Source of the DNA: Psychrobacter sp. DM4
Lineage (GTDB): Bacteria > Pseudomonadota > Gammaproteobacteria > Pseudomonadales > Moraxellaceae
Length of the DNA stretch: 32,000 nt
NCBI RefSeq assembly: GCF_051307035.1
Contig: NZ_CP195536.1
Location: forward strand, 930,001 to 962,000
Direction: 5' to 3'
Positions 18,343-31,530 of this stretch are shown here, in pieces (position 1 is the first letter of the stretch; each line of letters opens with the position of its first letter). The notes under the pieces are model-generated. The model worked only from the letters and a program-made list of their open reading frames with translations, did not search any database and was not told the origin of the DNA. Made by a program: the position numbers and the translations under genes.

Positions 18343-18605
18343 AAGGGTATGGTCTTGAGTTAATTAGTTTTTATTGTCTTATTGATAATTTAAAATATTA
18401 TAAAGACAGGTAGCTACTAGAGTAGCTACTATTTACCCTAGTATTGAATCTAATATTATTAAAGTGAACGGCGAGGATATTATACCAGTAGCTTTTAACA
18501 GTGTTTTACGGTATAAATAGTTAGGCTCAAACATTTAGCCCTTACCACTTGACTGCCAAGGATTTCAGGCAATATTTTGCTTTAACTATGCTAAGGACAG
18601 CACAC

Positions 18606-20276
18606 ATGATTATAACCAAATCGACCTCTAACAATAAACCTATTACGACTCGTTGTATTTTATCAGTCGCTATTGCTAGCAGCTTGCTGCTAGTGGGTTG
18701 CGGCGATGATAATGACTTCGATGAAAAAGTAACAGACAACTCAGACATTAGCGTGAAGTCTATCAGTCAGTTTAATAAAGCGACGATAAATGCTGCTTTT
18801 AGCACAGGTGATTCTTCGACACCCGACGCTAAATGTGATATCAAAATAGAAAAAGTCAGCTACAAAACCAAAGGCGCTGCGGGTGAAGACGCTACTGCCA
18901 CAGCGGCATTGATGTTACCTAGTGGTGATAGCGCTGACTGTCAGGGCGACCGTCCTATCTTGCTCTATGCGCATGGTACCACAACCGATAAAGCCTATGA
19001 TTTTGCTCAAGTAGGCAACCCACAAAACTCAGCCGTTGGTGAGGCTACTCTTATTGCAGCAAACTTTGCTGCTCAAGGGTATATCGTCGTTGCTCCTAAC
19101 TATGCAGGTTATGATGAGTCAGACCTAGATTACCACCCGTACTTGGTAGCCGAGCAGCAATCCACTGATATGATCGATGCGCTCGAGAGTGCACGCGATA
19201 TCATAGACGATGAGCAAGATAACAACAATACCAATTATACAAGCATTGAGGACTCAGGTAAGCTGTTCGTTAGCGGCTACTCGCAGGGTGGACACGTCGC
19301 TATGGCAACCGCACGAGCGTTGGAGCAAGATGGCGAAACAGTGACTGCTATAGCGCCATTATCTGGACCCTACGCATTAGCTGCATTTGGTGATGCTATT
19401 TTTGCTGGTAATGTTAACCTTGGTGCCACTCGCTTTGCACCATTGCTAGCTATTGGTTTACAAAAAAAGTATCCAAATATATATAATAATACTTCTGAGA
19501 TATTTAAAGATCAATATGCTAATACTAAATTACCGAATGTATTGAGCTTTGATCAGTTAGTAAACGCGAAAAAACTTCCTGAGTTTGCCTTGTTTGAAAG
19601 AAGTCCTAGCAACCCACTTTTAATCGCTCTACCACCATCTGAGTTACCTTTTGCACCATTGGGGTTTGATAATACTAGCTATCTTATAAAGACTGATTTT
19701 AGAGCAAATTTTGTCGCAGATGCGATTCAGAATCCTGACGGTTTAGTTCCAACGGTTATCAATGCTCTACCAGCAGCGAACCCACAAAACAACCTTCGTA
19801 AAGCGTTAAAGGATAACGACTTACGCGGTTACATACCAAAAATGCCAACACTTCTTTGTGGTGGTAATAATGATCCAACCGTGTTTTATGATTTAAATAC
19901 AGGGTCTATGTCTGCTATATTGCAACAAGCAAGCGCTGCGCCATCTGTTAATTTAAACATTACAGTTCTGGATGTAGATGCGACCAATGATGATGACCGT
20001 GATCAAAATACAGTCACTTCAATCGGTAGTGCTATGAGTAATGCTTGGATGAGTACCGATACTATTGATAATATTCAAAATAGATTTGCCGCAAGTTTAA
20101 CCGCTGTGCAGAATCGAGCTATATCAAATGCGACAGCAGCAGGGGTGACTGATTCTGTACTATTAGCGCAAGCTGCAGGCGCTGCGGTATTAGAAAACTA
20201 TCACGGTGCTCTTGCGAGTACCGCTTGCACTCAAGCAACGCGTGAATTCTTCGAGCAAAACTTTAATCAATCTTAA
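18606..20276 (+). CDS. Secreted or lipoprotein alpha/beta-hydrolase (putative lipase/esterase)
   Basis: The ATG at 18606 gives MIITKSTSNNKPITTRCILSVAIASSLLLVGC, a lipoprotein signal. The track start at 18549 (TTG) adds 19 aa. The nucleophile elbow is GYSQGGH. Confidence 0.7.
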   Translation: MIITKSTSNNKPITTRCILSVAIASSLLLVGCGDDNDFDEKVTDNSDISVKSISQFNKATINAAFSTGDSSTPDAKCDIKIEKVSYKTKGAAGEDATATAALMLPSGDSADCQGDRPILLYAHGTTTDKAYDFAQVGNPQNSAVGEATLIAANFAAQGYIVVAPNYAGYDESDLDYHPYLVAEQQSTDMIDALESARDIIDDEQDNNNTNYTSIEDSGKLFVSGYSQGGHVAMATARALEQDGETVTAIAPLSGPYALAAFGDAIFAGNVNLGATRFAPLLAIGLQKKYPNIYNNTSEIFKDQYANTKLPNVLSFDQLVNAKKLPEFALFERSPSNPLLIALPPSELPFAPLGFDNTSYLIKTDFRANFVADAIQNPDGLVPTVINALPAANPQNNLRKALKDNDLRGYIPKMPTLLCGGNNDPTVFYDLNTGSMSAILQQASAAPSVNLNITVLDVDATNDDDRDQNTVTSIGSAMSNAWMSTDTIDNIQNRFAASLTAVQNRAISNATAAGVTDSVLLAQAAGAAVLENYHGALASTACTQATREFFEQNFNQS

Positions 20277-23727: not shown

Positions 23728-24396
23728 ATGCTACATTTGCATCATTTAGAAAACTCGCGCTCGTATCGTATCGTGTGGCTACTAGAAGAGCTGAATATTG
23801 ACTACGAGCTGACTTGCTATGAGCGTACCAAGGCTTATTTAGCACCTAAAAGTCTCAAAAAAATCCATCCGCTAGGTCATGCACCTATTTTGGAGGTCGA
23901 TGGTCGAGCCTTAGTTGAGTCAGGCTTTATCATTGAGTATTTGCTTAAACATTATGATAAAGAGCAACGTTTTAAACCTGCTGATGATAATGAATCAGCT
24001 TGGGAAGATTATACTTTTTGGATGCATTTTTCTGAAGCTTCAGCGATGCCTCCTTTGGTGATGCGCTTAGTATTTAATAAGATCGTAGAAAGATCGCCCT
24101 TGCTCATAAAACCGGTTGTCAAAGGTATTCAAAAGCAGGTTGAAAGTAGCATGATTGCAGATAGTATCGCTAATGTTTTGACTATGATGGAGCAGCAACT
24201 TAAGGACAATCTCTGGTTTGCAGGCGATACCTTTAGCGCTGCTGATATACAGATGTATTTTGTGGCCATTGCTGCCAAATCTCGTACCAAGTTAGGTAAC
24301 GGTGATTACAAGAACGTAATCGATTGGCTAAAACGTTGTCAAGAGCGTGATGCCTTTGAACGAGCGGAAACCAAAGGGGGACGTATTAAGTTTTAG
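23728..24396 (+). CDS. Glutathione S-transferase family protein (GTT1-like class), paralog 1
   Basis: 222 aa. MLHLHHLENSRSYRIVWLLEEL...IHPLGHAPILEVDGRALVESGFIIEYL is a thioredoxin-fold GST N-domain, followed by an alpha-helical C-domain. Confidence 0.85.
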   Translation: MLHLHHLENSRSYRIVWLLEELNIDYELTCYERTKAYLAPKSLKKIHPLGHAPILEVDGRALVESGFIIEYLLKHYDKEQRFKPADDNESAWEDYTFWMHFSEASAMPPLVMRLVFNKIVERSPLLIKPVVKGIQKQVESSMIADSIANVLTMMEQQLKDNLWFAGDTFSAADIQMYFVAIAAKSRTKLGNGDYKNVIDWLKRCQERDAFERAETKGGRIKF

Positions 24397-24603: not shown

Positions 24604-25157
24604 GAATGAGCTGTTTTTGTCAGATTATCATTAGGGTGTGTTTGATATTCGACCGTGGCACTGACAGAGACTATTTAGTATCGACTATATCAAGGATTAT
24701 ATGACGCGTCGCACGGATGATAGTCTGTACAGGTACAACGAGCCAAAAGTTAACAGTTTCCCGCCGCGCCGCCGCTTACAAAGTCAACGTATCAAAGGCG
24801 CACTAGCGGTCCATTGATTTCGCAAAATTAAAAAGTATCCGTAAAAGATAGATGAGTTATCACAGAAAATAGAAAACCTAAGCTAGATATCAGAGCGGAT
24901 GAATTAAGGTCGTAAGCGTACTGCTAAAATATAAACTTTTAATGTAAAAAACCAAAGTTTTAAGAATCAAAGTGTTAAGCGTCAAAAAATACGCTATGAT
25001 TAGTAACCACTGATTTTTGCTTTGCAGGGTGTCAACGACTTTACAATTATCCTGCTATTGATAATTAAAGATAACAGGATGCGCAGGTAGAAGCTTTACA
25101 ATAACTCAAATTTATCATATTCATTTATTCATACTTTACTTATGACTAGGACGATTT

Positions 25158-25826
25158 ATGTTGCACCTTCATCATTTAGAGAATTCACGTTCGCATCGCA
25201 TCTTGTGGTTGCTTGAGGAGCTAAAGACCGACTATAAGCTCACTTGTTATGTACGTAATAAAGCTTACCGCGCGCCAGATAGTCTCAAACAGATACATCC
25301 TATAGGTCATGCGCCGATACTAGAAGTCGATGGACGCCCCTTAATTGAATCAGGATTCATTATCGAGTATTTGCTCAAGTATTATGACCCAGATCATAAG
25401 TTTAAACCTGCTGACGATGAAGAGACGGCATGGGAGGACTATACATTTTGGTTGCATTTTGCTGAAGCATCAGTCATGCCGCCATTGGTCATGCGTCTGG
25501 TATTTACCAAAGTCGTCGAGCAGTCTCCTATGCTCATCAAGCCTGTCAGCAAAAAAATTCGCGATCAAGTTGAAAAGAGCATGATCAGTAGCAGCTTGGA
25601 TAAGATGCTAAAGATGATGGAGCAGCATCTAGAGGATAACAATTACTTCGCTGGTAGCGAGTTTAGTGCCGCCGATATTCAGATGCATCTAGCGGTGCTC
25701 GGTGCCAATGCGGGTAAGGGACTGGACAAAAGAAAATATGCCAATCTACTCAACTGGCTCAACCGCTGCGAAGAGCGCGATGCCTTTAAACGCGCTGAAA
25801 AAAAGGGCGGCCGTTTGAAGTTTTAG
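25158..25826 (+). CDS. Glutathione S-transferase family protein (GTT1-like class), paralog 2
   Basis: 222 aa, collinear with paralog 1 without gaps. My hand count gives about 153 of 222 identical residues. Confidence 0.85.
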   Translation: MLHLHHLENSRSHRILWLLEELKTDYKLTCYVRNKAYRAPDSLKQIHPIGHAPILEVDGRPLIESGFIIEYLLKYYDPDHKFKPADDEETAWEDYTFWLHFAEASVMPPLVMRLVFTKVVEQSPMLIKPVSKKIRDQVEKSMISSSLDKMLKMMEQHLEDNNYFAGSEFSAADIQMHLAVLGANAGKGLDKRKYANLLNWLNRCEERDAFKRAEKKGGRLKF

Positions 25827-28411: not shown

Positions 28412-29374
28412 ATGAAAGATAGTTCCGTGAAGTCTTTAGAACAACAGGCCTTACAAGTACAAGCGGATCAGCTGCTACCTATCGTTACGCGCGAGTTATC
28501 CAAACTCGACTATCAAAAAAGCACTCATCAACGACTCAGCCAGCAGACTAATGATACGGTTATCTACCAAGGTCTAACTCGGGCTCATCATTTGCAATTT
28601 GGATCAGTCATGATTAAATGGCAACTGAGTTTGAGCATGTATCATCATTCCTCTGACCTCTATCACGAGGCTCAAGTCTTGCATACTCTACAGCAACATC
28701 AAAACAATCCTACGGCTATCGCGCCGTCAGTATTAGCCTTTGAAACTTTGCGTCTAACGGTATTAGAGAAACATCATTCATTAACCCTGCTTGTTATGCA
28801 TTATTATGCGCAGGGTAGTTTGGCAAAGTATCTTACTCAGCCTTTAACCGTTGCACAAAAGCATCAGCTTATAGTACAAGTAGCTCAGCTTATTGCTCAT
28901 TTGCATCAAGCTGGCTGGATACACGGCGATATTAAACCGAGTAATTTTTTACTTAGCGACGACCAACTTATCAATACAAATAACCTTACTTTACGACTCA
29001 CCGACTTTGCGTTGGCAAAACCGATTAATCTTAATCGAAGTATATATAAACCTAGTCTAATAGATAGCGCAGGCACGCCCGCATACCTTGCGCCTGAGTG
29101 TTGGCAAGGACAGGGTATAACCATGCAAAGTGATATTTATGCTTTTGGTATTATGCTGTATGAGATATTAGTAGGTAGGCGACCATTTGCCATTGATGCG
29201 CAAAGTGATGAGCCGCTAAGAGACTGGGCGACTCAGCATTGTCAGCAGCCTATTCCGACTTTACCTAGTCAATACAGCCAGTATCAATTGATTGTGGATA
29301 AGGCGATTGAAAAGCGGGTAGAGAAGAGGTATTTGAGTATGGATGAGGTGTTGGGGGAGTTCTGTGAGCTTTAA
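28412..29374 (+). CDS. Eukaryotic-like (Hanks-type) Ser/Thr protein kinase, catalytic domain only
   Basis: The motifs are VMIKW (subdomain II Lys), YHEAQVL (III Glu), HGDIKPSNFLL (catalytic loop), TDFALAK (DFG-like), GTPAYLAPE (APE) and DIYAFGIMLYEILVGRRPF (IX). No canonical GxGxxG loop is present. Confidence 0.85.
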   Translation: MKDSSVKSLEQQALQVQADQLLPIVTRELSKLDYQKSTHQRLSQQTNDTVIYQGLTRAHHLQFGSVMIKWQLSLSMYHHSSDLYHEAQVLHTLQQHQNNPTAIAPSVLAFETLRLTVLEKHHSLTLLVMHYYAQGSLAKYLTQPLTVAQKHQLIVQVAQLIAHLHQAGWIHGDIKPSNFLLSDDQLINTNNLTLRLTDFALAKPINLNRSIYKPSLIDSAGTPAYLAPECWQGQGITMQSDIYAFGIMLYEILVGRRPFAIDAQSDEPLRDWATQHCQQPIPTLPSQYSQYQLIVDKAIEKRVEKRYLSMDEVLGEFCEL

Positions 29375-29420
29375 CATATTTGAGATATACATATTAATTT
29401 GAAAGGTATCTTTCGTAAGG

Positions 29421-31160
29421 ATGAAAAGCATGGAAGAAAAAATTTTAAATTTTGAAGATGTTCATTTGCTATCAATTAAAGCTGATAACCTGTTATTAAG
29501 TAGCGATGATAGAGGGCTTAGAGAGTTTATCGAGCAGATTTTGTCTGTTAATTACATTTTTGAAAATCTATCTGATGAAGCGCAGTTCTGTTTTACGGTA
29601 GGTAACTGCTTACAAGAAATTTATAAATATAGAGAGTTGGATTGGTTCTCTGACAACTTGAGTCAATCCATAATTTTTTACCGAAAAGCCTTGTATGCCT
29701 TACAGAGAATAAAACATTTAACTGATATTGATTTGGTTATAAAGGGTAGTATTGAAACTAACTTAGGTAACAGTCTTAGCTCTCAAGGACGTGTTTTTTG
29801 TTGTATTCCTTTTTGGGATAGTGCATATAGTTGTACTAATAATCCGGTATCTTTAATCTCTAAAGCGAACAATGAGCTATTTATTGCTGGAAATTTATAT
29901 GATCATGGACATGCTGAATATCATCAATACATTGCATATAAGTTTGTATTATTAGGTATCGACACTATCGAGGAACTATATCCCGAGCAAAAAGCCGCCT
30001 ATGCAGAAGGAAGCAATTTCATAAATTTTAAAATATGGTTTGAGAGTAATTATGAATTAGAAAGCTTTAAATATTTCGATGATTTTGAGGAGGTTTTTGA
30101 AACTAAGAAACAGGAAGAGTATCTAGAATGGTGTGGTAATAATAGGCTCTTTATTAACGACTTAAACGATGTTTGTACATCTGAAGTTGTTTATCAAGAT
30201 ATAATGACATTACCTTCAATTTCAGCTGAAATAAACATATCTTTAACTTTAGATGAAGAGCTTGTTTACCATGGCAATTTCGACGAAATCAAGAATGATT
30301 ACTGCTACGCACGTTATCTAACATTTATTGCTCAAAATATGTCGAATGAAGAAGAGCATATATTTAATAAGACATATCCTCATGCTAACGATATATCTCA
30401 CTCTATTACAAACATAAAAGCTAATCACTATAAAAGTGCTTTTAGAACTCTATATTCACTCTTTGATAAAATTGCATATTTTATTAATAGATTTTTTGAT
30501 CTAAACAATATTGCAAAAGATCATAGAATTAGTTTTGATAGCCTTTTTAGACAGTTAAACAATAATAAAGGGTGGAAGCCGAACGACAAGCTCAGAGAAA
30601 GTAATAACTATTTCATTCATGCATTATTCTATATTCTTAAAGACATTAAGGATGTAAAGGGAGTCACCCCTACAAGTCATTGGCTTGATCCCAATACGAA
30701 AAAAATTTCAGAGATTAGAAACTCTATAGAACATCGTTCTTTAAAAATAGTCGATGATTTTGGAGACAAGTTAAACCAATTAGATAAGGTGTCCAAAGTA
30801 TCTGAGCTGGAAAATATAAGAAGTGAAGTAATAGATTTAGAAAATAATATTGAAGTGTTAAGTGCTGAAATCACTGTGATAGGAAAAATAGAGAATAATG
30901 CACTTAAGGAGCTTTTACAGAGCAAAATGCTAAACTTGAAAGATGATCTATTGGTTAAGAAATCAAAAGTTTATGAAAAGAATAAGCTTTCAAGTCATTC
31001 TTTGACTATTACAGAAAGTGACTTCAAAGAAAAGCTCATAACCTTGATGAAGCTTGTTCGTAACTCGATTATGTATATGTCATTGGCTATTCACTTAGAG
31101 GAAAGGAACAAGCTCAAGGATGATAGGCCTGTAATCAGTAGAGAGACACCTTTAAAATAG
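29421..31160 (+). CDS. Large HEPN-motif protein (helical repeats, Rx4H HEPN core and a coiled-coil-like insert), possibly LA2681-like; putative RNase effector
   Basis: EIR433-NSIE-H438-RS (nt 30717-30734) fits the HEPN Rx4-6H signature. The N-terminal region of about 300 aa is TPR-like and helical. The DNA is about one-third G+C. The ATG at 29430 has better SD spacing (AAGGA at 29417-29421) than the ATG at 29421. Confidence 0.6.
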   Translation: MKSMEEKILNFEDVHLLSIKADNLLLSSDDRGLREFIEQILSVNYIFENLSDEAQFCFTVGNCLQEIYKYRELDWFSDNLSQSIIFYRKALYALQRIKHLTDIDLVIKGSIETNLGNSLSSQGRVFCCIPFWDSAYSCTNNPVSLISKANNELFIAGNLYDHGHAEYHQYIAYKFVLLGIDTIEELYPEQKAAYAEGSNFINFKIWFESNYELESFKYFDDFEEVFETKKQEEYLEWCGNNRLFINDLNDVCTSEVVYQDIMTLPSISAEINISLTLDEELVYHGNFDEIKNDYCYARYLTFIAQNMSNEEEHIFNKTYPHANDISHSITNIKANHYKSAFRTLYSLFDKIAYFINRFFDLNNIAKDHRISFDSLFRQLNNNKGWKPNDKLRESNNYFIHALFYILKDIKDVKGVTPTSHWLDPNTKKISEIRNSIEHRSLKIVDDFGDKLNQLDKVSKVSELENIRSEVIDLENNIEVLSAEITVIGKIENNALKELLQSKMLNLKDDLLVKKSKVYEKNKLSSHSLTITESDFKEKLITLMKLVRNSIMYMSLAIHLEERNKLKDDRPVISRETPLK

Positions 31161-31177
31161 CCATAAACATTCAAACA

Positions 31178-31200
31178 CAAAAAAACCTGCTAATAAGCAG
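31178..31200 (-). terminator. Terminator of tRNA-Leu (a weaker terminator for the convergent HEPN gene)
   Basis: The minus strand reads CCTGCT-TATT-AGCAGG followed by TTTTTTT. Confidence 0.7.
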
Positions 31201-31236
31201 GCTTTGATATTTGGTCTAAGAAGTACTATCGAATAA

Positions 31237-31321
31237 TGGTGGGGCTGGAGAGACTCGAACTCTCACACCTTGCGGCGCCAGAACCTAAATCTGGTGCGTC
31301 TACCAATTCCGCCACAGCCCC
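31237..31321 (-). tRNA. tRNA-Leu (anticodon TAG)
   Basis: The reverse complement is GGGGCTGTGGCGGAATTGGTAGACGCACCAGATTTAGGTTCTGGCGCCGCAAGGTGTGAGAGTTCGAGTCTCTCCAGCCCCACCA. It is 85 nt with a long variable arm, and its central part is nearly identical to E. coli tRNA-Leu(UAG). Confidence 0.95.
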
Positions 31322-31409
31322 ATTTTGGTCACTCTATCATTAAAAGCGTTTATATTCAAACGCTATCAAGACGAATAACTGATCCGGTAGTGCGTCTCAG
31401 TGGTTGGCT

Positions 31410-31437
31410 ATTATATAGAGTTTGACTGGTTTGGCAA
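31410..31437 (-). promoter_or_regulatory. Near-consensus sigma70 promoter of tRNA-Leu
   Basis: The minus strand reads TTGCCA-16 nt-TATAAT, about 85-90 nt upstream of the mature tRNA 5' end. Confidence 0.6.
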
Positions 31438-31530
31438 CCCCTTTTGGTGATTATTTTTACTTTTTAGTAGTATTTCATTTTATATGAATAGTATTTAGCT
31501 GCTTTTAGATCGTTTTAGTTAGCGATACTG

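Follow-up and report, generated by a model that had tools for sequence, protein, structure and literature searches.

What is the AT-rich gene that separates a Ser/Thr protein kinase gene from tRNA-Leu(TAG) in Psychrobacter sp. DM4, how did it come to lie there, and does it serve in defence against phages? The gene is found near the right end of the 32,000-nt stretch of contig NZ_CP195536.1 (positions 930,001 to 962,000) that was analysed as a whole and is referred to here as the window. The original prediction, made from the letters of the window alone, described a foreign-looking block of exactly one gene at the 3' end of the tRNA, encoding a large protein with a HEPN ribonuclease (RNase) motif, and proposed it as an uncharacterised defence or abortive-infection effector. 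The protein almost certainly belongs to the LA2681 HEPN family, and we put a probability of roughly 60% on the reading that the gene encodes a stand-alone, single-protein effector of the abortive-infection type within that family.

The claimed 579-codon open reading frame (ORF) is present at 29421..31160 on the + strand, and all of the peptides quoted from it are found in its translation, i.e., EIRNSIEHRS (nt 30717-30734), FYRKALYALQ, NLGNSLSSQGR and YSLFDKIAYFINRFF. Translation likely starts at the ATG at 29430, which yields a gene at 29430..31160 (+) and a protein of 576 amino acids (aa), while the upstream ATG at 29421 is the alternative that yields 579 aa. The former start is favoured because a Shine-Dalgarno sequence, AAGGA (29417-29421), lies 8 nt before it, and because the protein at NCBI and the homologues are 576 aa long. 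Residue numbers shift by three between the two counts: R433 and H438 in the 579-aa count are R430 and H435 in the 576-aa count, which is used below.

Profile searches were applied to the family assignment. The protein scores 130.2 bits (E = 8.7e-38) with the Pfam model HEPN_LA2681 (PF18733), whose curated gathering cut-off is 27. Residues 278-459 align to positions 5-172 of the 204 in the profile and a second stretch matches as well, and so does the related Pfam model HEPN_Cthe2314 (E = 8e-8). PF18733 is present in 120 of 120 homologues among the matches listed, and the identical Psychrobacter sp. DM4 protein already carries the LA2681 HEPN family name at NCBI. These results bear out the LA2681-like membership proposed beforehand. 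No family model in the NCBIfam library matched the protein, and a profile search against chains of the Protein Data Bank (PDB) returned no solved relative. When matches are counted as clusters formed at 50% identity, an exhaustive search of 1.84 billion representative proteins found 858 of them at E ≤ 1e-3, whereby 68 reached E ≤ 1e-30.

The LA2681-like family was defined in a 2013 survey of HEPN domains, where it is described as fused to TPR or in operon with TPR (Anantharaman et al., PMC3710099). This survey is the sole paper found that contains the name 'LA2681', and no experimental study of the family was found in the literature, in agreement with the earlier statement that the family is experimentally uncharacterised. 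On the haloarchaeal plasmid NZ_CP098515.1 (Haloplanus sp. GDY1), an LA2681 HEPN gene adjoins a separate TPR protein, a layout that resembles the 'in operon with TPR' arrangement of the survey (PMC3710099).

Conservation was assessed by aligning 71 full-length homologues, which are 46-83% identical. The catalytic signature R430-N-S-I-E-H435-R-S (Rx4H; 30717..30740, +) stood up as the Rx4-6H signature it had been taken for, being invariant in 71/71 sequences: R430, N431, E434, H435, R436 and S437 never vary, and neither do D346, R544, S546 and Y549. The family-wide motif is [IL]RNxxEH[KR]. An AlphaFold2 model of the protein, with a predicted local distance difference test (pLDDT) score of 84 and a predicted template modelling (pTM) score of 0.81, is helical, plus a short strand on each side of a C-terminal hairpin. 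In this model the Rx4H motif lies at the C-terminal end of helix 421-434 (helix 3), matching the position at the end of helix 3 where the HEPN Rx4-6H motif sits (PMC3710099). The conserved acidic or polar helix-2 residue of the HEPN superfamily corresponds to the invariant D346 (in LFDKIAYF), within model helix 328-355. Helices 1-3 of the HEPN core occupy residues 274-441 (30249..30752, +), where the best Pfam stretch is 278-459 and the model places helices at 274-302, 328-355, 394-406 and 421-434. This core presents a low entropy of 0.91 and a ratio of nonsynonymous to synonymous substitution rates (dN/dS) of 0.05. Helix 4, at residues 525-560 (31002..31109, +; 529-559 in the model), holds the invariant R544, S546 and Y549, and presents an entropy of 0.86 and a dN/dS of 0.05-0.09.

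Between helix 3 and helix 4 the model shows an antiparallel helical hairpin specific to the subfamily, at residues 442-524 (30753..31001, +), whose two helices (443-487, about 45 residues, and 490-522, about 33) correspond to the coiled-coil insert that had been claimed before the last helix. Behind the motif, 103 of 120 close homologues among the matches listed have a tail of about 140 aa, and 84 of 133 representatives of the wider family have one of 80-89 aa. The window protein is a member of a distinct LA2681 subfamily of about 576 aa with an extended loop between helices 3 and 4. The hairpin is variable (entropy 2.2, dN/dS 0.24-0.48), the first 45 residues of the protein have the same entropy of 2.2, and dN/dS ranges over 0.24-0.72 across the hairpin and the N-terminal tip.

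The N-terminal half, residues 1-237 (29430..30140, +), is modelled with pLDDT mostly above 90, and its sole structural and profile matches are TPR proteins: LGN (4wne) in Foldseek, with probability 1.00, E = 0.01 and a query template modelling (TM) score of 0.26, and the designed consensus TPR in the PDB profile search, over one repeat at residues 110-140 (E = 9e-5). None of the Pfam TPR models matches at E ≤ 10. It is justified to call this half TPR-like, short of a canonical TPR, and the helical repeats described from the sequence are borne out to that extent. The half is a putative sensor or partner-binding domain, and its entropy is 1.46. For the gene as a whole dN/dS is 0.10-0.19, with purifying selection strongest on the HEPN core. 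Conservation and selection agree in fitting a catalytic core with a variable periphery.

The evidence for a defence role comes from where the homologues are found. Full-length homologues (46-59% identity) are distributed patchily over Vibrio, Photobacterium, Shewanella, Alteromonas, Maridesulfovibrio, Pantoea, Serratia, Edwardsiella and Enterobacter, and further over Xenorhabdus, Proteus, Yersinia and Klebsiella plasmids. Four of them, in Pantoea, Serratia and two IMG/VR proviruses, are held in the P2-like gpA-portal slot, i.e., the tin/old variable locus, which has been described as a reservoir for anti-phage systems (Rousset et al. 2022, PMC9122126). In the Pantoea slot (L003:8001-11770) the HEPN gene is accompanied by a KAP-family nucleoside triphosphatase (NTPase), and in that of Serratia liquefaciens (L109:8001-12651) by a cyclic oligonucleotide-based anti-phage signalling system (CBASS), composed of CD-NTase and Cap15. 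The Vibrio chagasii homologue adjoins CBASS genes, AAA_21+HNH genes and an integrase. In IMG/VR provirus L101 (10095-11867), the reverse transcriptase (RT)-Toprim gene of a type I-C retron lies 369 bp downstream of the HEPN homologue, and in IMG/VR provirus L089 (6836-7726) a candidate defence gene, PDC-S32, precedes another homologue by 275 bp. Other homologues are found in the early region of an Edwardsiella prophage, and on a Klebsiella IncF plasmid beside IS1. In E. coli the gene follows the integrase of an ssrA island directly in one case, and in others is sited within a Rac-like prophage or where a Trb conjugative element ends.

The recurrent siting near defence systems and in mobile-element hotspots is qualitative evidence, and with the P2 hotspot occupied four times and with CBASS, retron and PDC-S32 neighbours, it supports the proposal of a candidate defence effector; a defence role for the LA2681 HEPN protein appears reasonably probable. 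In the DefensePredictor supplements, as far as they are searchable, an E. coli LA2681 protein is given as a 'predicted novel defense gene' with a machine-learning log-odds of 9.1 (PMC13092281), and no peptide of the family is found among the cloned systems. This machine-learning score is the sole functional assignment found for the family. The LA2681 family was not found among the tested systems in the papers on the P2/P4 hotspots (PMC9122126, PMC13586616).

When all ORFs within 3 kb were clustered across 21 loci, no recurring partner gene was found, with no neighbour family common to more than three near-identical loci. Neither a minimal nucleotidyltransferase (MNT) nor any other conserved antitoxin adjoins the HEPN gene or its homologues at these 21 loci. 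Since no partner recurs, the protein is taken to work alone, and the earlier observation that no MNT antitoxin or integrase accompanies the gene holds for the window locus.

These same contexts bear on another explanation, that the protein is a selfish or addictive toxin, or a weapon in competition between mobile elements (e.g., a self-inhibited toxin that stabilises its element or excludes others), and is not dedicated to countering lytic phages. Members of the family are nearly always carried by prophages, plasmids or integrative elements, toxin-antitoxin genes are often nearby (HigB, Hok, ptaRNA1, GNAT/DUF1778), and HEPN toxins are well known in toxin-antitoxin systems (PMC3710099). Yet the absence of a conserved antitoxin or partner across the 21 loci is at odds with this explanation, and the P2 gpA-portal slot is a documented anti-phage reservoir (PMC9122126). 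Moreover, the Psychrobacter gene persists under purifying selection without a surrounding element, which is not predicted for the addiction module of an element that has been lost. We consider a mobile-element toxin improbable, though it retains some weight.

The Psychrobacter locus was compared among species by means of an anchor, the conserved DUF815 ATPase gene two genes upstream, which gave 80 species loci. The interval from kinase to tRNA-Leu had been proposed as a place to look for presence or absence in relatives, and it shows the gene to be accessory: the HEPN gene is present in 0 of the 80 other Psychrobacter species loci, and the closest relative, Psychrobacter sp. DM8, has an empty site of 67 bp from kinase stop to tRNA. 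In DM8 the kinase stop is directly followed by AACACAAAAAA, a terminator hairpin, and then the tRNA. In the alignment with this empty site, the insert begins exactly behind the kinase TAA (29374), such that the homology break coincides with the compositional boundary that had been noticed there. The right edge is at about 31165-31173, 65-70 nt short of the tRNA. Given that DM8 and every empty site share AACACAAAAAA and the hairpin at 31182-31205, the terminator is ancestral, and the right boundary is therefore not at the terminator and tRNA 3' end, as had been proposed. The bidirectional hairpin (31182..31205, from the terminator scan) lies outside the insert and now terminates the HEPN gene.

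On its two sides the insert has native neighbours: the Ser/Thr protein kinase gene at 28412..29374 (+), with a Pfam Pkinase match of E = 2e-30, and tRNA-Leu(TAG) at 31237..31321 (-), which is intact, unduplicated and 96-100% identical in other Psychrobacter loci. There are no ORFs between the kinase and HEPN genes, nor between the HEPN gene and the tRNA. The 55-nt leader of the HEPN gene (29375..29429, +), from the kinase stop to the ATG at 29430, arrived with the gene: nothing corresponds to it at the empty sites in relatives, and its conservation is limited to the three Psychrobacter copies. Its + strand shows no consensus promoter. A conserved regulatory leader travelling with the gene was rejected, as the upstream region is conserved only within Psychrobacter.

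The tRNA 3' end, which had been offered as a classic landing site, is probably not the one used here, since the insert abuts the kinase stop and the end of the tRNA is not duplicated. No repeat of the tRNA 3' end was found within 29200-31450, and no integrase or att repeat at the insert of the window. Hence tRNA-directed integration was rejected, the ancestral terminator standing between insert and tRNA. An integron gene cassette was rejected as well: there is no suitable inverted repeat, and with ancestral sequence resuming 11-14 nt behind the stop codon there is no room for attC. The accessory unit would comprise about 1.8 kb, made up of the leader and the ORF and set behind the kinase stop codon and ahead of the kinase/tRNA terminator, and it probably spread among Psychrobacter via homologous recombination of the flanks rather than by a tRNA-directed integrase.

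The same slot holds the two nearest homologues (83% and 74% identity, on metagenome contigs) in other Psychrobacter lineages, and the kinases of these lineages share only 54-58% identity with the window kinase. Relatives of one of these carriers, L086, with kinases 81-82% identical, have empty sites. The history of the locus may be that of an old insertion with repeated loss, or of spread by recombination of conserved flanks. As a side observation, the last 8 nt around the HEPN stop in L086 (2520-2614), AAAGTAGC, recur at the kinase stop of empty relatives (L041:8660-8960 and L030:8705-9005); the 8-nt identity could be a deletion scar or a matter of chance in AT-rich DNA.

The junction of kinase and tRNA-Leu(TAG) is variable among loci L004-L083. 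About 35 of them have an empty junction (67-185 bp). Elsewhere it is filled by three lipoprotein genes, by a gene for a 538-aa flavin adenine dinucleotide (FAD) protein, by one for a membrane protein of some 175 aa, or by a DJ-1/PfpI-like gene together with a small ORF. In 11 Psychrobacter loci the 8.7 kb next to the kinase do not contain the tRNA.

The claim of an AT-rich block is fully supported. The HEPN gene has a G+C content (GC) of 0.312, which corresponds to z = -5.3 in comparison with the other 1731-nt segments of the 32 kb (mean 0.441, standard deviation 0.024, minimum 0.380), and its GC at third codon positions (GC3), 0.284, is the lowest among the 22 ORFs of the window. The family gene has a GC of 0.30-0.36 in every host, however, even where the flanks are at 0.50. 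AT-richness is thus a trait of the family, and composition does not date the acquisition; the low GC on which the foreign appearance was based is real, but it is no mark of recent arrival.

The locus also suggests a host function outside conflict systems, namely a horizontally acquired RNA-processing or stress RNase with a conditional housekeeping role (e.g., under cold or nutrient stress in marine or psychrophilic bacteria). In DM4 the gene is embedded among housekeeping genes, and it is probably co-transcribed with the native kinase gene, since neither a terminator nor a consensus promoter stands between them. Furthermore, conservation is high in both the TPR half and the HEPN core, and three Psychrobacter lineages retain the gene in the same slot. 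These points are set against an extreme patchiness, with the gene missing from all 80 other Psychrobacter species loci and the family seen in no fewer than 11 of the 5,426 complete E. coli genomes, against carriage on mobile elements and siting in a phage hotspot, and against an atypical GC in every host. A housekeeping RNase is therefore unlikely.

That the protein is a relic without catalytic activity, or a TPR scaffold with a structural role only, is very unlikely: structure searches show mainly TPR and coiled-coil features, but the ORF is intact, the motif is invariant in all 71 sequences and the HEPN core evolves at a dN/dS of 0.05. The idea of a two-component system in which the HEPN protein would be the nuclease arm of the upstream Ser/Thr kinase, like RNase L and Ire1, in which a kinase-like domain controls a HEPN (KEN) RNase, draws on a kinase gene that directly precedes the HEPN gene in the same orientation and is not followed by a terminator, and on KEN domains being HEPN domains fused to kinases (PMC3710099), yet the kinase is native and adjoins tRNA-Leu in other Psychrobacter species without the HEPN gene, and no kinase or other conserved neighbour stands beside homologues elsewhere, such that the comparative data largely refute the pair. 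It was rejected, the adjacency being a by-product of the insertion site, and keeps hardly any probability.

Compared with an abortive-infection RNase, the four alternatives (mobile-element toxin, housekeeping RNase, relic and kinase pair) are less well supported. Several results nevertheless weigh against the abortive-infection RNase itself. The neighbours in the window are housekeeping genes, with no defence island around the HEPN gene in DM4, and a dedicated defence hotspot at the Psychrobacter junction was rejected, the other fillers being ordinary genes. A PADLOC scan (PADLOC-DB v2) at E ≤ 10 matched 0 defence families, and the PHROG models gave no match to the protein. In the literature, no phage-challenge, toxicity or RNA-cleavage data were found for any member of the family. 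The structure search for the four-helix up-down bundle of the HEPN fold retrieved HepT as its sole HEPN entry, weakly, at E = 1-2 with a target TM of 0.42; the fold assignment hence rests on the sequence profiles. The TPR surface is fairly conserved (entropy 1.46), which suits a conserved host ligand equally as well as a phage sensor, and the roles given to the TPR half and to the hairpin are pure inference.

If the protein is an abortive-infection RNase, its mechanism can be sketched as follows, with the details to be taken as tentative. The C-terminal HEPN domain would be a metal-independent RNase, with an active site formed by R430, H435 and D346 and completed by homodimerisation as in other HEPN enzymes, from which it may be extrapolated that activity requires a dimer bringing two Rx4H motifs together. 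HEPN RNases are the effectors of many Abi, toxin-antitoxin and CRISPR systems (PMC3710099). The TPR-like half would hold the nuclease inactive until a phage-derived or infection-induced ligand binds; the architecture of the model suggests a domain that senses the trigger or autoinhibits the nuclease. The long hairpin, emerging beside the catalytic motif, would mediate or gate the dimer contact, and its fast-evolving surface, judging from the same architecture, may serve this gating or be contested by phages. Once active, the enzyme would cut host and/or phage RNA (tRNA, rRNA or mRNA) and thereby halt phage production.

A broader and rather speculative proposal is that the LA2681 subfamily of about 576 aa constitutes a single-protein immune receptor-effector, in which the TPR-like sensor gates the HEPN RNase without an NTPase switch and the 80-residue hairpin acts as a dimerisation or activation arm, or as a surface targeted by phages. 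If true, this would be a minimal 'sensor-arm-nuclease' design, apart from the ApeA, Abi-type, Avs and toxin-antitoxin HEPN systems, and if the family were validated, the catalogue of defence systems would gain a compact member that targets RNA with a single gene. The combination of helical repeats, HEPN domain and coiled-coil arm with no NTPase would offer a tractable model for the restraint and release of a lone HEPN nuclease. The family is widespread yet rare, occurring in Vibrio, Shewanella, enterobacteria, Psychrobacter and even archaeal plasmids, and PADLOC is without a model for it, which leaves a gap in detection. For the DM4 genome alone the significance is modest, i.e., an already-annotated accessory gene of a named but unstudied family.

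Elsewhere in the window, the ORF at 18549-20276 (+) encodes a 575-aa predicted lipoprotein with an alpha/beta-hydrolase GYSQGG motif and no Pfam match. It has the second-lowest GC3 in the window (0.34) and is unrelated to the HEPN protein. Two glutathione S-transferase paralogues, at 23728..24396 and 25158..25826, are split by an AT-rich spacer of about 760 bp, with a GC of 0.33 at 24800-25199 and no ORF of at least 120 aa.

In comparison with known systems, the window protein is closest to its own family, sharing the [IL]RNxxEH[KR] motif and the N-terminal TPR-like region of LA2681 proteins (PMC3710099), yet it differs from most LA2681 representatives, which have 80-89 residues after the motif, by the extra loop of 55-60 residues that forms the long hairpin in its subfamily. 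The P2-like gpA-portal cargo includes four homologues in the exact slot, twice beside defence-type genes (CBASS and the KAP NTPase) (PMC9122126; PMC13586616), whereas the window copy is outside any prophage. With HepT/MntA (HEPN-MNT, type VII) it has a HEPN RNase toxin domain in common, and 7bxo and 6m6w are the sole HEPN entries among its weak structural matches, but the window protein is about four times larger, has extra domains, and has no MNT partner here or beside homologues.

The single-protein HEPN anti-phage systems and lactococcal Abi proteins (ApeA, AbiD/AbiF, AbiJ, AbiV and the CBS-HEPN system DS-11 of DefensePredictor) likewise consist of one polypeptide with a C-terminal HEPN domain and its Rx4-6H motif (PMC3710099; PMC13092281). 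They resemble the window protein further in a non-catalytic N-terminal domain thought to be regulatory or sensing, in the lack of an antitoxin gene, and in their location on mobile elements or in defence islands. Unlike them, the window protein is of another HEPN family with no PADLOC match, its regulatory module is TPR-like instead of CBS or AbiJ-NTD, and a coiled-coil hairpin stands beside the predicted active site. Finally, although the window protein is far smaller than the STAND/Avs-type pattern-recognition receptors with TPR sensors and has no NTPase or oligomerisation module between sensor and effector, the proposed logic would be the same, as a functional analogy only: a helical-repeat sensor fused to a nuclease effector.

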